Source of the DNA: a virus
Lineage: Duplodnaviria > Heunggongvirae > Uroviricota > Caudoviricetes
Length of the DNA stretch: 15,817 nt
Virus record (IMG/VR): IMGVR_UViG_2537561618_000006
Direction: 5' to 3' (one strand)
In this document: positions 313 through 15,647 of the stretch, piece after piece
Position numbering within the stretch: the stretch's first letter is position 1
Layout: every line of letters starts with the position of its first letter
Program-made: the position numbers and the translations under genes
Notes under the pieces: model-generated
What the model was told of the DNA's origin: nothing
The model's database searches: none
Seen by the model: the letters and a program-made list of their open reading frames with translations, nothing else

Positions 313-1197
313 TCAGGCTGACAGATCATCGTTTCCGATGGAAGCATAATAAGCTTTTTCTGCTCCTGCCGGAGGGATGTGGCCCAGCCTTTCCAGCAAT
401 CGTCGATTGTTATACCAGTCCACCCACGTGAGTGTGGCCAGTTCCACTTCTGCACGGTTTTTCCAGCTCTTACGGTGTATTACCTCCGCTTTGTAAAGAC
501 CATTGATGCTCTCCGCCATCGCGTTGTCATACGAGTCGCCTGTACTTCCTGTTGATGCCAGTAATCCGGCTTCCTTAAGCCGCTGTGTGTAGGCCAGCGA
601 TACATACTGAGAACCTTTATCACTGTGATGGACCGTGCCGGACGGTCGACGGGCCCATAACGCCTGCTCCAGTGCATCCAGCACGAATGTCGTTTCCATG
701 GACGATGAGACCCGCCACCCCACGATGTATCCGGCAAACACATCAATGATGAACGCCACATAGACGAAGCCCCGCATGTGCTGACGTAAGTAAAATCAGC
801 CACCCACAGCTGGTCAGGTCGTTCTGCCACGAACTGACGGTTTACGCGGTCGCCTGCGGCAACGGCTTTCCGGCTGATGGTCGTACGGACCTTTTTACCC
901 CGGAGAACACCGGCAAGTCCCATAACCGCCATGAGACGTGCCACAGTGCATCTGGCCACTCTGATACCTTCCCGTAACAACTGACGCCAGACTTTACACC
1001 GTATACCTTGTGATTTTCATCGTATACGCGCTGTATCTCTTTCTTCAGCCAGTCATCGCGCTGCGCACGGGCACTGCGTTTATCCGGATGATGTCGCTGT
1101 TGCTGACAGTGGTAATACGTTGACGGGGCAATATGCAGTTCGCTGCATAGCGGTCCGCCCCGTACTGCTCACGCAGCTTATCCAGCAGTGGCATCAT
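313..1197 (-). pseudogene. IS3-family transposase OrfB (DDE integrase core), broken by three single-base frame changes
   Basis: The OrfB reading frame starts at the ATG at 1197 overlapping the orfA stop, and shifts near 1157, near 995 and near 775. Pieces translate as [13 protein letters not shown] / GPLCSELHIAPSTYYHCQQQRHHPDKRSARAQRDDWLKKEIQRVYDENHKVYGV / KVWRQLLREGIRVARCTVARLMAVMGLAG...[11 protein letters not shown] / [23 protein letters not shown]...[11 protein letters not shown]...[22 protein letters not shown].... The final segment is back in the same frame as the start. Confidence 0.75.
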
Positions 1198-1520
1198 TTT
1201 TTCCAGAGGCGGTCGAACTCCGCCTTCGCAAAATAAGCGGAAGCCTGGCGAAGGATATCGTTACTGCGGCGCAGTTCACGATTTTCACGCTCCGGCTCTT
1301 TCAGACGCTGACGTTCAGCGGTGGTGAGCCCTCCATCACCGCCCCCGGTATCCCGCTCATGCTGGCGACCCCAGACACGCAGAGTCTCCGGCGTACAGCC
1401 AATCTTTGGAGCAATGGAACAAATTGTCGCCCATTGTGAGTCATATTCGCCCTGACTTTCCAGAACCATACGGACTGCCCGTTGACGGACTTCGGGGGAA
1501 AAACGAGTATTTTTAGTCAT
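1194..1520 (-). CDS. IS3-family transposase OrfA (helix-turn-helix protein), 108 aa, intact
   Basis: [60 protein letters not shown]...; ATG preceded by aggtaaacagg; C-terminal leucine-zipper-like region; resembles IS629 OrfA from memory. Confidence 0.85.
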
Positions 1521-1549
1521 CCTGTTTACCTCTTTCTCAGGAAGTTTAG

Positions 1550-1574
1550 TCTCCAGGATTCCCGGGGCGGTTCA
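1550..1574. repeat. Terminal inverted repeat of IS629-like element (orfA-proximal end)
   Basis: Reverse complement of 1550-1574 matches 271-295 at 23/25 positions. Confidence 0.8.
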
Positions 1575-1575
1575 C

Positions 1576-12175: not shown

Positions 12176-12198
12176 GCCCCGGTTATCCGGGGCTTTTT
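12176..12198 (+). terminator. Putative rho-independent terminator downstream of the major tail gene
   Basis: Hairpin gccccgg-ttat-ccggggc (12176-12182 / 12187-12193) followed by ttttt at 12194-12198. Confidence 0.6.
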
Positions 12199-12211
12199 GC
12201 ATCCGGAGAAC

Positions 12212-12601
12212 ATGATGTTTCTGAAACAGGATACGTTTAATTATGAAAAACAGTCCGTGGTGCTCAGTGAGCTGTCCGGGCTGCAGAGAATTGAATATCT
12301 GACGTTTGTTCAGCAGCGAACGGCAAAGTTTGATGCACAGGAGGGAGAACTGCCGGAGGCTGAACGACAGATTGCTTTTCTGCGTATGGGAATGGATATC
12401 AATGCCTGGCTGGTTTCCCGCTCACTGTGGAATGCTGAGCAGTCTCAGGATGTTGAGACGCTTTGCGCATCCATTATGACAACATGGTCGTATGATGCGC
12501 TGGGCGCGGGGGCGGAGAGGGTTCTGTCGCTGAGCGGTATGGGGACCATTGAGAATGCCGGGGATGATGATCATGAGGCGCTGACGCCGGAAAAGTCCTG
12601 A
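12212..12601 (+). CDS. G: Tail assembly chaperone (lambda gpG-like)
   Basis: MMFLKQDTF..., VVLSELSGLQRIEYL, LTTW-like region match lambda gpG (MFLKTESFEHNGVTVTLSELSALQRIEHL...). Confidence 0.85.
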   Translation: MMFLKQDTFNYEKQSVVLSELSGLQRIEYLTFVQQRTAKFDAQEGELPEAERQIAFLRMGMDINAWLVSRSLWNAEQSQDVETLCASIMTTWSYDALGAGAERVLSLSGMGTIENAGDDDHEALTPEKS

Positions 12602-12939
12602 CGCGGGAAATGCAGTTTGTCATGCGGCTTGCCCGGGAGTTCCGGCGGGCAGACTGGCGGCGGATGCTGTCGGATATGTCGGCCACTGAGCTTGGTGAGT
12701 GGGGCGATTATTTCCGGATGCAGAGCTTCAGTGATGTGTGGATGGATGCGCAGTTTGCCTCGCTGAAGGCATTGATCGTGAGAATGGTGTCCGGCAGCAG
12801 CGATGCTGCGGTGGCTGATTTCAGCCTTTTACCGGAAGAGAACGGGATACCGGAGCGAACGGACGAAGAACTGATGCATCTTGGGGAAGGTATTTCCGGA
12901 GGTGTGCGTTATGGACCAGATAGCCAACCTGGTCATTGA
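12577..12939 (+). CDS. T: Tail assembly protein T-frame segment, expected to be made as a G-T fusion by -1 programmed frameshift
   Basis: Open frame in the -1 phase relative to G, beginning 24 nt before the G stop and ending 29 nt inside H; position and overlap geometry identical to lambda G/T. Confidence 0.7.
   Translation, partial: GADAGKVLTREMQFVMRLAREFRRADWRRMLSDMSATELGEWGDYFRMQSFSDVWMDAQFASLKALIVRMVSGSSDAAVADFSLLPEENGIPERTDEELMHLGEGISGGVRYGPDSQPGH
12589..12595 (+). other. Candidate -1 slippery heptamer for G-T frameshifting (G GAA AAG)
   Basis: The only heptamer within the 12577-12601 G/T overlap with an A-AAG lysine slip site; lambda uses G GGA AAG at the equivalent place. Confidence 0.4.
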
Positions 12940-15647
12940 TTTGGGGATTGATGCGGCAGAGTTTAAAAATGAAATTCCCCGTATCAAAAACCTTCTGAAT
13001 GGTGCAGCCAGCGATGCAGAACGGTCTTCTGCCCGTATGCAGCGTTTTATGGAGCGTCAGACTCAGGCGGCCCGGCAGACAATGCAGGCGGCTTCTTCGG
13101 CTGCAACAGCAGCATCAGCCCATGCGCAGACGGTGGAGAAGAATGCACGGGCTCATGAACGCATGGCCCGTGAGGTGGAACAAACCCGTCTGCGCGTGGA
13201 TGCCCTGAATCAGAAAATGCGCGAGGAACAGGCGCAGGCCAGGGCGGCTCAGCTGGGGGTAAGCAGTGCTGCAGAAGTGTATATCCGCAAAATGGAGCGG
13301 GCAGGAAAAGCCACACATTCGCTGGGGCTGAAAAGTGCGGCAGCCCGGCGGGAGCTGGGGGTGTTAATCAGTCAGATGGCGCGCGGCAATTTTGGTGCGC
13401 TGAGGGGATCCGGGATAACGCTGGCTAACCGTGCCGGATGGACAGGCGCACTGATGTCGCCGAAAGGCATGATGACTGGCGGCGTTATTGGCGGACTTGT
13501 CGCGGCGGTCCTGGGTCTGGGTAAAGCCTGGCATGACGGCCGGAAGGAGGGCGAGAAATTTAACCGTCAGCTGGCGCTGACGGGACATTATGCCGGTGTC
13601 ACTGTCGGGCAGTTGTGGAAACTCAGCCGGGCCATATCCGGGAATGGTATCACGCAACATGCGGCAGCCGGTGCGCTGGCACAGGTGGTGGGCAGTGGGG
13701 CATTTCATGGAAACGATATTGGTATGGTGGCGAAAGCTGCCGCACAGATGGAGCGATCGGTTGGCCAGTCGGTCAGCGATACCATAAATCAGTTTAAGCG
13801 GCTGAAGGATGATCCTGTAAATGCCGCGAAGGCGCTGGACAATGCGCTGCATTTTTTGAATGCCACTCAGCTTGAGCAGATACGCGTCCTTGGGGAGCAG
13901 GGGCGGTCCAGTGATGCGGCCGGATCGCCATGTCTGCGCTGGCAGAGGAAACCGGTAAACGCACATCTGATATTGATAATAATCTCAATGCGCTGGGTAG
14001 TACGCTGCAAACCTTGTCTGACTGGTGGAAGCAGTTCTGGGATGCGGCCATGAATATTGGTCGTGAAGACTCGCTGGATGCGCAGATTGATGCGTTACAG
14101 GAAAAAATTCAGCGCGCGAAAAAATATCCGTGGACAAACGCCTCCACACAGGTGGAGTACGATCAGCAGCGTCTTAACGATCTTCAGGAGAAAAAACGCC
14201 GGAAGGATTTGCAGGATGCAAAAGCGCAGGCAGAACGGAATTACCAGGAGCAACAGAAACGCCGGAATGCTGAAAATGCCGCGCTGAACCGGATGAATGA
14301 AACGGAAGCTGCACGACATCAGCGGGAAATTTGCGCGTATTAATGCCATGCAGTACGCCGACCAGGCTGTCAGGGATGCGGCGATACAGCGTGAAAATGA
14401 ACGTTACGAAAAAGCCATTAGAAAAATACACGGGCAACCCGTAATGATGAGGCACCCGGTTATTGCTGCAGTACAGTCAGCAGCAGGCACAGGTGGAAGG
14501 GCAGATTGCTGCTGCCAGACAGTCAGCAGGCATTGCCACTGAAAGGATGACTGAAGCGCATAAACAGCTTCTGGCCCTGCAGCAGCGCATCAGCGACCTG
14601 GACGGGAAAAAGCTGACGGCAGATGAAAAGAGTGTGCTGGCCCGTAAGAATGAGCTGATTCAGGCGCTGACGCTGCTGGATGTGAAACAGCAGGAGCTGC
14701 AGAAACAGACAGCGCTTAACGACCTGAGAAAAAAAACGGTTCAGCTGACCAGCCAGCTGGCAGACAAAGAACGTGCACTGCGTGAGCAGCACAATCTGGA
14801 TATTGCCACTGCAGGTATGGGGGATAAGCAGCGGCAGCGCTACCAGGCACAGTTGCGCATCCGGCAGGAATACCGGCAACAGTTGCAACAGCTTGAGAAT
14901 GACAGTCGCCAGAAAGGCACTTACGGGACGGAGGACTACCGGAGGGCTGAGGAGGTGCTGAAGGGGAGCCTGAAGCGACAACTGAATGAAAACAAACGCT
15001 ACTGGCAGGAACTGGAAGTGGCGCAGGGCGACTGGAAAAACGGTGCCATGCGGGCGTTTCAGAATTTTACGGCGGATGCGGATAATGCGGCGGGAACGGC
15101 AGAACAGATGTTTACAGTGGCATTCAGCAGTGCCGGTAATGCACTGGCGACATTCTGTACCACCGGTAAGCTGAATTTTAAATCCTTCACCTCTTCCCTG
15201 TTGTCAGATATGGCCAGAATTATGGCACAGATGGCCATGATGCAGGCGGTAAAGGGCGTCGGTTCTTTATTCGGCTTCACGACTAATGCTGATGGCGGTG
15301 TTTACCAGTCTGCTGATTTGAGTCGCTACAGTGGCACGGTGGTTAACCGTCCGACGTTTTTTGCTTTTGCAAAAGGCGCGGGTGTGATGGGGGAAGCGGG
15401 AACTGAAGCCATTCTGCCACTGCGTCGCGGTGCTGATGGTAAGCTGGGGGTTGTGGCGGATACTGGTGGTTCAGGCATGGTGATGTTTGCCCCGCAGTAC
15501 AACATTGAGATCAATAACGACGGCACGAACGGGCAGATAGGTCCGGCTGCCCTGAAGGTGGTTTATGACCTCGGGAAAAAAGCGGCCGCGGACTTTATGC
15601 AACAGCAGGCCCGTGATGGTGGCCGGTTAAGTGGAGCATACCGGTAA
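12911..15647 (+). pseudogene. H: Tail tape measure protein (lambda gpH-like), reading frame broken at three points
   Basis: N-terminus MDQIANLVIDLGIDAAEF... matches lambda H MAEPVGDLVVDLSLDAARF; C-terminus EINNDGTNGQIGPAALKVVYDLGKK...RDGGRLSG matches lambda VINNDGTNGQIGPAALKAVYDMARK...RDGGLFSG. Coding frame changes near 13919-13926, within 14297-14343 and near 14451-14475. Confidence 0.85.

Follow-up and report, generated by a model that had tools for sequence, protein, structure and literature searches.

The window analysed here, 15,817 nt in length, is the entire draft contig AFHC01000022.1 of assembly GCA_000213475.2 from Shigella flexneri 4343-70, the two sequences being identical; an N-terminal fragment of the tape-measure protein H and gpC both map to this contig. 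The strain name is carried by the records EGJ90332.1 and EGJ90336.1 and appears in the literature (PMC5429569, PMC6397287). Downstream of an integrase fragment and two insertion sequences, the gene order is collinear with the lambda-like late operon, namely Nu1'-A-W-B-C-D-E-FI-FII-Z-U-V-G-T-H-M. The assignment to this group is borne out by the Pfam families recovered from the head genes (Phage_Nu1, GpA_ATPase/nuclease, gpW, Phage_portal_2, Peptidase_S49, HDPD, Phage_cap_E, Packaging_FI and Phage_attach) and from the tail genes (Minor_tail_Z, Phage_tail_U, Phage_TTP, Phage_TAC_2, Phage_tail_T, TMP_2/TMP_4/Tape_meas_lam_C and Phage_min_tail), together with a DNA identity of 97-98.7% to annotated prophages. 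The features are as follows:

1..270, plus strand: 5' part of a tyrosine integrase gene that IS629 interrupts; 100% identity to annotated tyrosine-type recombinase/integrase genes of E. coli genomes
271..1574, minus strand: IS629 (IS3 family), 1304 nt as against 1310; identity of 98.9% to L004, an annotated IS3-family element that is intact and has the programmed frameshift
775..775, minus strand: loss of one base (CC>C) in IS629 orfB, private to the window; in no other IS629 copy compared, including that of the sister contig
992..999, minus strand: 4-nt deletion (ACGC) in IS629 orfB, at 996, relative to intact IS629
1158..1161, minus strand: loss of one base in IS629 orfB, C4 run (ACCCC in intact IS629, C5 in L008)
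1575..2659, plus strand: IS600 with roughly 180 nt missing from the 5' end, directly adjoined by IS629 and interrupting Nu1; identity to an annotated IS600 (L003) of 99.1%
2451..2456, plus strand: gain of one A (A5>A6) in IS600 orfB, private; missing in all S. flexneri loci and in the two copies of IS600 that the sister contig has
2660..2967, plus strand: 3' remnant of the terminase small subunit gene Nu1, cut by IS600; PF07471 matches the called product
2939..4867, plus strand: terminase large subunit gene A, 642 aa, intact; length as in relatives, no indel relative to L008
5051..6644, plus strand: portal gene B, split into a 351-aa product and a C-terminal piece by one additional T (T5>T6) in the run 6039-6044
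6634..12939, plus strand: head and tail genes C, D, E, FI, FII, Z, U, V, G and T, intact; no indel relative to L008, expected Pfam families
12911..15647, plus strand: tape-measure gene H, whose true state, from in-silico repair and a Logan match, is an intact 912-aa gene with an in-frame 303-nt deletion
13238..13245, plus strand: junction of that in-frame 303-nt (101-codon) deletion, at the 8-nt direct repeat GCCAGGGC, read against L012
13920..14453, plus strand: 534-nt patch of H with four private single-base indels, found in 0 of 10 S. flexneri genomes

Intact E. coli relatives served as the alignment reference for calling indels, and those private to the window were defined against ten S. 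flexneri loci, the nearest complete genome being L008 (LR213452.1). Two further sources of comparison were the contig AFHC01000021.1 of the same assembly, which holds a second copy of the IS629/IS600 segment, and a read-level re-assembly consisting of the Logan contigs of run SRR060520, contig_403 (L019) and contig_242 (L020). Logan contigs are built separately for each run from 31-mers seen at least 2 times (PMC12424806).

Over positions 269-15817, the differences between LR213452.1 and the window amount to 6 substitutions and 7 indels of one nt (775, 1158, 2451, 13920, 14330, 14420 and 14453). These seven indels are in none of the compared S. flexneri loci, and the private substitutions in the phage part relative to L008 are limited to three, at 6147, 8021 and 15402. 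The preliminary description had listed eight single-base indels in IS629 orfB, IS600 orfB, the portal gene and H; these four genes are indeed the affected ones, but the small indels number nine and the one at 996 removes 4 nt. Its three indels in IS629 orfB are thus right in number, only those at 775 and 1158 being single-base changes, and its single indels in IS600 orfB and in the portal gene are both borne out. The count of three for H proved too low, since there are four, at 13920, 14330, 14420 and 14453, in addition to the in-frame 303-nt deletion; those at 14420 and 14453 lie 33 nt apart and read as a single −2 break. The observation that several indels fall at homopolymer runs holds in the sense that, with the nearest relative as reference, every single-base indel alters the length of a run of at least two identical bases; among the seven private ones this pattern has P ~0.004 under random positions. 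The genes A, W, C, D, E, FI, FII, Z, U, V and G, described as intact, are free of indels relative to the nearest relative, as is T. The interruption of Nu1 by IS600 was not part of the earlier account.

The cryptic lambda-like prophage of S. flexneri (2457T, AE014073; G1663, CP007037; 1a 0228, CP012735; LR213452.1) has the same gene order as the window, the same IS600 junction in Nu1 and the same T6 run in the portal gene, at an identity of 99.6-99.9%. The window differs from it in the left flank formed by the integrase fragment and IS629 and in the seven private one-nt indels, of which at least four are assembly errors (see below). Intact lambda-like prophages of E. coli (FDAARGOS_943, NZ_CP065615.1; VL46, NZ_CM177010.1), with a late operon 97-98.7% identical to that of the window, have all of their genes annotated as intact, including a portal protein of 530 aa and an H protein of 1013 aa. 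Unlike the window, these E. coli prophages have a T5 run in the portal gene and a complete Nu1, and lack both IS600/IS629 at this site and the 303-nt deletion in H.

Several of the lesions are widely shared. The IS600/Nu1 junction, which places window position 2659/2660 at nt 202 of Nu1 (510 nt long in L001), is common to all ten S. flexneri loci. The portal run is T5 in the intact E. coli relatives and T6 in 10 of 10 S. flexneri loci, as well as in contig_403 of the re-assembly, and 2,587 collection blocks, among them that of 2457T (AE014073), list the exact 351-aa portal product. The additional T is accordingly judged from these alignments to be an inherited, real lesion that is fixed across S. 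flexneri. Essential morphogenesis genes are hence hit by lesions common to independent genomes, and the prophage is defective on account of the cut Nu1 and the portal frameshift, both of which occur in all ten loci. The in-frame deletion in H is shared with L008 and with contig_242, and the resulting 912-aa H is seen on 995 contigs, so that this deletion too is taken to be inherited and real.

The left flank is of a more composite nature. Neither L008 nor any other of the S. flexneri loci has the integrase fragment at the corresponding place, and in related genomes it lies outside the prophage. The adjoining IS629 shows the terminal inverted repeats TGAACCGCCCCGGG and CCCGGGGCGGTTCA, read directly, with orfA at 1194-1520 and orfB broken at 1158, 996 and 775. 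The 3-bp target-site duplication expected across IS629 is absent, the flanks being AAC on the left and CAC on the right, which implies either a rearrangement or the threading of the contig through a repeat. The neighbouring IS600 retains the 3' 1085 nt of the 1264-nt element rather than both of its ends. Both copies resemble the known elements in inverted repeats, orfA/orfB layout and sequence (98.9% and 99.1% identity), but depart from them in that IS629 is 6 nt short and lacks a target duplication, while IS600 is 5'-truncated by about 180 nt and has an extra A.

Within these elements the individual indels appear to differ in origin. The 4-nt deletion at 996 recurs, with no gap relative to the window, in L006, L008, L011, L013, L014, L021 and L022, including five S. 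flexneri loci, and is by this comparison an inherited, real change. For the 1158 allele the recurrence is of a weaker kind: its 50-aa product is also encoded by the sister contig AFHC01000021.1, which belongs to this assembly as well, and by another IS629 copy in the complete genome CP026810.1, so that this indel is reproducible and probably real. The indels at 775 and 2451 occur neither in relatives nor in the IS629/IS600 segment of AFHC01000021.1, which does have the 1158 allele. Across 5,426 complete E. coli genomes, with about 21,000 IS629 places, the 775 allele has no exact match, and the repaired 206-aa orfB fragment, with G190 and S205 as in the window, was not found in the collection. 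Two substitutions lie near 775, at 321 and 365. The truncated 185-aa IS600 product is on record for AFHC01000022.1 only (EGJ90336.1), the deposited gene call for this fragment starting at 1902. The A6 run was found once in 6,046 IS600 places of complete E. coli genomes, so that real slippage at 2451 is not impossible. As 775 and 2451 lie in multi-copy elements outside the re-assembly, their status as artefacts derives from absence elsewhere and not from reads; we consider both to be probable consensus errors.

For H the reads themselves are informative. Run SRR060520 appears to derive from strain 4343-70, judging from 12.8 kb of identity that includes the three private SNPs. Its contig_403 is 100% identical to window positions 2633-10461, including the private SNPs 6147 and 8021, and its contig_242 matches positions 10873-15817 with 0 mismatches and exactly 4 gaps, which are the four H indels: −1 at 13920 (CCC>CC), +1 at 14330 (TT>TTT), −1 at 14420 (AA>A) and −1 at 14453 (CC>C). 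The run thus has every private SNP, the portal frameshift and the 303-nt deletion, and differs from the window at these four positions alone. Repair of the four indels in silico yields a 912-aa protein whose sole difference from the H of L008 is P832T, and this exact protein, with T832 encoded by the private SNP at 15402, is found in the collection on contig_242 only. The three H fragments produced by the patch are each on record in AFHC01000022.1 only, one deposited gene call starting at 14050, and the underlying indels are without a match in all relatives. Because they are missing from a read-level re-assembly that keeps the private SNPs, the four H indels are directly shown to be consensus errors of the draft assembly and not gene decay.

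The distribution of the private indels bears on how far such errors extend. None of the seven falls in 2660-13237, a stretch of 10.6 kb with 60 runs of at least 5 bases compared against L008 (P = 0.0003 if uniform), and four of the seven are inside 534 nt (P = 0.005), values which indicate that the clustering is not due to chance. Indels also make up 7 of the 12 private differences (P = 5e-5 if 10% of mutations are indels). It is conceivable, but rather improbable, that the errors reflect a genome-wide signature of a homopolymer-prone platform, with frameshifts at similar density in all genes; all private indels are indeed run-length changes of ±1, and the assembly is fragmented, with contigs that end in repeats. 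These drafts may have been pyrosequenced, a point given no weight as evidence here. Against such a signature stand the clean 10.6 kb and about 8 kb of unique sequence in AFHC01000021.1, which has no private indel relative to L008, L012 and L014, and a uniform platform error was rejected on these two stretches. With about 19 kb of unique sequence in two contigs free of private indels, and with the errors confined to short 2-3-base runs in one patch and in repeats, they are judged to be local, a global homopolymer signature being unsupported by the alignments. The window shares with the known class of homopolymer miscalls in drafts the ±1 run changes, the restriction to one draft contig and the absence from the read re-assembly, but its errors are concentrated in the patch and the repeats rather than over long runs. 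Most of those in H are in 2-3-base runs while neighbouring 5-6-base runs are correct, which is not the classic pattern of such a platform.

A markedly less probable alternative is that all nine indels are genuine in 4343-70, representing ongoing pseudogenisation, and that SRR060520 comes from a different, near-identical isolate or subculture without the four H mutations. The Nu1 and portal lesions of all S. flexneri do make the prophage defective and further lesions neutral, and the 1158 allele is reproducible. However, SRR060520 keeps the three private SNPs and is otherwise identical over 12.8 kb, with the four H indels as the sole difference; four indels without a substitution in 534 nt are far from a normal mutation spectrum, given a branch that has only 3 substitutions over 13 kb; neutral decay of a wholly dead prophage would not leave untouched 10.6 kb of genes that are just as neutral; and the H fragments occur in no other assembly. 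The narrower proposal that the four H indels were real in the deposited DNA preparation, with SRR060520 as a sister subculture, we regard as very improbable. Were it true, the patch would have acquired four ±1 frameshifts, but no substitution, within very few generations, as would be expected where error-prone repair had acted on a confined tract, for instance by Pol IV-type −1/+1 frameshifting close to a mended break. The idea that the H consensus merges two diverged copies of the gene, as in a collapsed repeat, or reflects a mixed culture might be entertained in view of the several lambdoid remnants in S. flexneri and the resemblance of the IS part, with its missing target duplication and unrelated left flank, to repeat threading, but it was rejected and is hardly credible, since no substitutions accompany the four indels, the sole H difference from L008 (15402) is read-confirmed, and contig_242 is an unbranched de Bruijn contig for 11.6 kb through H, making the region unique at k=31.

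Taken together, these observations favour, with a probability of about 0.88, a defective lambda-like prophage with inherited lesions upon which local consensus errors were superimposed in the deposited sequence. Under this reading the late operon would have been dead already in the S. flexneri ancestor, with IS600 inserted in Nu1, IS629 arriving later next to what remained of IS600, and the additional T shifting the portal frame; the in-frame loss of 303 nt from H would be a slippage deletion. On top of this real decay there would be local base-calling or consensus errors, each of ±1 in a short homopolymer, comprising the four of the H patch and probably two further ones, at 775 and 2451, in the repeated IS629/IS600. 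The local patch may owe its origin to thin or poor read support in H; for the IS repeats, reads that could be placed in more than one copy are a plausible counterpart. The preliminary description had posed real decay of a cryptic prophage and sequencing error as competing explanations, and each accounts for a part. Decay is true of the prophage as a whole, as far as the compared genomes indicate, through the IS600 insertion in Nu1, the IS629 beside the truncated IS600, the portal frameshift, the 4-nt deletion in IS629 and probably the change at 1158, but it does not extend to the four H indels. Error explains the latter and probably 775 and 2451, though not as a global homopolymer signature. 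Indels shared by independently sequenced relatives, which had been regarded as a mark of real decay, are likewise a subset: the portal insertion is in ten S. flexneri loci and the IS629 deletion in five, and the seven others are in none.

In methodological terms, draft-contig frameshifts can be verified or dismissed with no recourse to raw reads, through in-silico repair followed by an exact-protein look-up in read-level re-assemblies. The 4343-70 assembly has been used in a comparative study (PMC6397287). The real lesions of the prophage, namely the inserted IS elements, the frameshifted portal gene and the in-frame loss from H, are ordinary and common to published S. flexneri genomes. The three deposited H pseudogene fragments of S. 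flexneri 4343-70 are artefacts and two of the IS fragments probably are too, and such fragments should not be counted as decay in studies of pseudogenisation in Shigella.

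The sequence of the window is identical to AFHC01000022.1 (15,817 nt) of NCBI assembly GCA_000213475.2. Both the N-terminal fragment of the tape-measure protein H (12911-14053) and gpC (6634-8139) map to this contig, whose protein records EGJ90332.1 and EGJ90336.1 carry the name Shigella flexneri 4343-70; AFHC00000000 is likewise given as S. flexneri 4343-70 in PMC5429569, and GCA_000213475.2 appears under strain 4343-70 in PMC6397287. These matches at the level of sequence, protein record and literature identify the window as one entire contig of a fragmented draft assembly, with the following layout:

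1-270, 5' part of a tyrosine integrase gene, with 100% identity to integrase genes of E. coli
271-1574, minus strand, IS629
1575-2659, IS600 without about 180 nt of its 5' end
2660 onward, lambda-like late operon, beginning inside Nu1 (terminase small subunit), then A (terminase large subunit), W, B (portal), C, D, E, FI, FII, Z, U, V, G, T, H and the beginning of M

Alignment of the window with two intact E. coli lambda-like prophages (L001, L002) and with intact copies of IS600 and IS629 (L003, L004) reveals nine small indels that break reading frames:

775, IS629 orfB, 1-nt deletion
996, IS629 orfB, 4-nt deletion
1158, IS629 orfB, 1-nt deletion
2451, IS600 orfB, insertion of one A (A5 to A6)
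6039, portal, insertion of one T (T5 to T6)
13920, H, 1-nt deletion
14330, H, 1-nt insertion
14420, H, 1-nt deletion
14453, H, 1-nt deletion

The preliminary description, which counted eight single-base indels in four genes of an otherwise intact operon, was right in outline, except that the single-base indels of H number four instead of three, one of the three IS629 lesions spans 4 nt, and Nu1 too is interrupted. The remaining head and tail genes are intact. That description had attributed the indels either to prophage decay or to the errors of a homopolymer-prone platform; both explanations hold, each for different indels.

Among the lesions with a wide distribution, the exact 351-aa truncated portal product is one that the assembly collection lists in 2,587 blocks. 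We aligned to the window ten S. flexneri genomes from among those listed for this product, including 2457T (AE014073.1); the T6 run of the portal gene is present in 10/10 of them, and the 4-nt deletion in all five that bear this IS629. H has additionally undergone an in-frame deletion of 303 nt (101 codons; junction 13238-13245), flanked by 8-nt direct repeats (GCCAGGGC), which is also seen in LR213452.1 (L008), where H is an intact gene of 912 aa. The presence of this 912-aa form on 995 contigs points to a S. flexneri sub-lineage with a tape measure about 10% shorter, residing in a dead prophage. The portal lesion at 6039, the IS629 lesion at 996, the IS insertions and the in-frame H deletion are real and inherited. 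The end of gene A (window 4776) divides the S. flexneri genomes into two groups: the 2457T group (L005, L007, L009, L010, L012) has a brief divergent patch with a 1-nt difference at the 3' end of A, whose called length is 636 aa in four of these genomes and which is further split in L010, and A is 642 aa in the window, L006, L008, L011, L013 and L014.

Seven one-nucleotide indels (775, 1158, 2451, 13920, 14330, 14420 and 14453) are private to the window relative to the ten genomes. Even the nearest relative, L008, differs from window 269-15817 by all seven of these, together with 6 substitutions. Private differences in the phage part of the window number 3 substitutions and 4 indels, against 14 and 3, respectively, in the ten other genomes combined. 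For each of the three H fragments created by indels (380, 97 and 394 aa), AFHC01000022.1 is the sole source on record. Private one-nucleotide indels are also found in L010 (CP178302.1), at window-equivalent positions 3537 and 3664, splitting A into 201 + 397 aa, and in L013 (UGYS01000001.1), at 15754, cutting M to 36 aa; such indels may be real lesions or assembly errors of a similar kind.

A read-level check on the window is provided by Logan contigs, which are assembled run by run from 31-mers that occur two or more times, with Minia3 simplification afterwards (PMC12424806). The window gpC, bearing the private SNP 8021, is also encoded on contig_403 of run SRR060520. This contig has 100% identity to window 2633-10461, a stretch that takes in the T6 run of the portal gene as well as the private SNPs at 6147 and 8021. 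After in-silico repair of the four H indels, we looked up the exact product in a collection of 15 billion proteins. The repaired H is a 912-aa protein differing from that of L008 solely by P832T, resulting from the private SNP 15402, and its exact sequence was found on one contig, in Logan only, namely SRR060520 contig_242 (11,618 nt). Against window 10873-15817 this contig has 0 mismatches, and its only gaps are the four at 13920, 14330, 14420 and 14453. SRR060520 is evidently from the same strain, and its re-assembly confirms the frameshift in the portal gene, the deletion of 303 nt in H and all three private SNPs, and contradicts all four H indels. These are thereby shown to be artefacts, and H is intact in strain 4343-70. 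FII (10059-10436; 125 aa, Phage_attach) is intact, yet absent from the recorded gene calls of the deposited contig; the calls for the Logan contig and for the relatives include it.

The private indels in the IS elements fall into two categories. The 1158 allele is required for a 50-aa product that recurs in a sister contig, AFHC01000021.1 (L022), and in a different IS629 copy of the complete genome CP026810.1; given these two further occurrences, the allele is reproducible and probably real. The sister contig bears the IS629/IS600 segment of L008 without the 775 deletion and without the 2451 insertion. Across 5,426 complete E. coli genomes, with ~21,000 IS629 places, the 775 allele has zero exact matches; of the 6,046 IS600 places in complete E. 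coli genomes, just one has the A6 allele of 2451, and the 185-aa product of that allele is known from AFHC01000022.1 alone. The single A6 match to window 2451-2456 lies at 90424-90509 of NZ_CP022688.1, a plasmid of E. coli CDC#03-98. Thus, 775 and 2451, which lie in repeats outside the span of the read re-assembly, are probable consensus errors.

The window IS629 has two unique substitutions close to its left end (321 and 365). Its flanks (268-273 / 1572-1578) read AAC versus CAC and show no target duplication, and its left neighbor, the integrase fragment, is unrelated: in L008, where the order is lysis genes-IS600-IS629-IS600-Nu1, the same IS629 adjoins an inverted IS600. A real IS629-mediated rearrangement in 4343-70 would fit, as would threading of the assembler through the repeat where the contig ends. 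Positions 1-4181 of the sister contig hold another version of the IS600-IS629-IS600 segment, in which the indel states differ, and end in IS1 and a yehF-like (WGR domain) gene rather than Nu1, so that the two draft contigs overlap in repeats and disagree. Both IS600 copies of the sister contig have a 25-nt deletion, seen in L008 in the inverted copy only.

The absence of private indels both from window 2660-13237 (10.6 kb, with 60 runs of at least 5 bases) and from ~8 kb of unique sequence in the sister contig, as aligned to L008, L012 and L014, speaks against a uniform homopolymer-platform signature. Under uniform placement, finding none of the seven private indels within 2660-13237 has P = 0.0003, four inside 534 nt P = 0.005, and run-length changes in 7/7 P = 0.004; indels making up 7 of the 12 private differences has P = 5e-5 if indels are assumed to be 10% of mutations. 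The pattern is that of a single bad patch, about one long read in length, plus repeats; weak read support there is a plausible cause of the patch in H.

On the whole, decay accounts for portal 6039, IS629 996 and probably 1158, which are shared with relatives or other copies, and fails for the four H indels; error accounts for those four, which are gone from the SRR060520 re-assembly, and probably for 775 and 2451, and fails for the portal and IS629 996 lesions. The cluster of indels in H, the striking part, is not a feature of the organism; what is real here is an ordinary cryptic prophage already known from S. flexneri.
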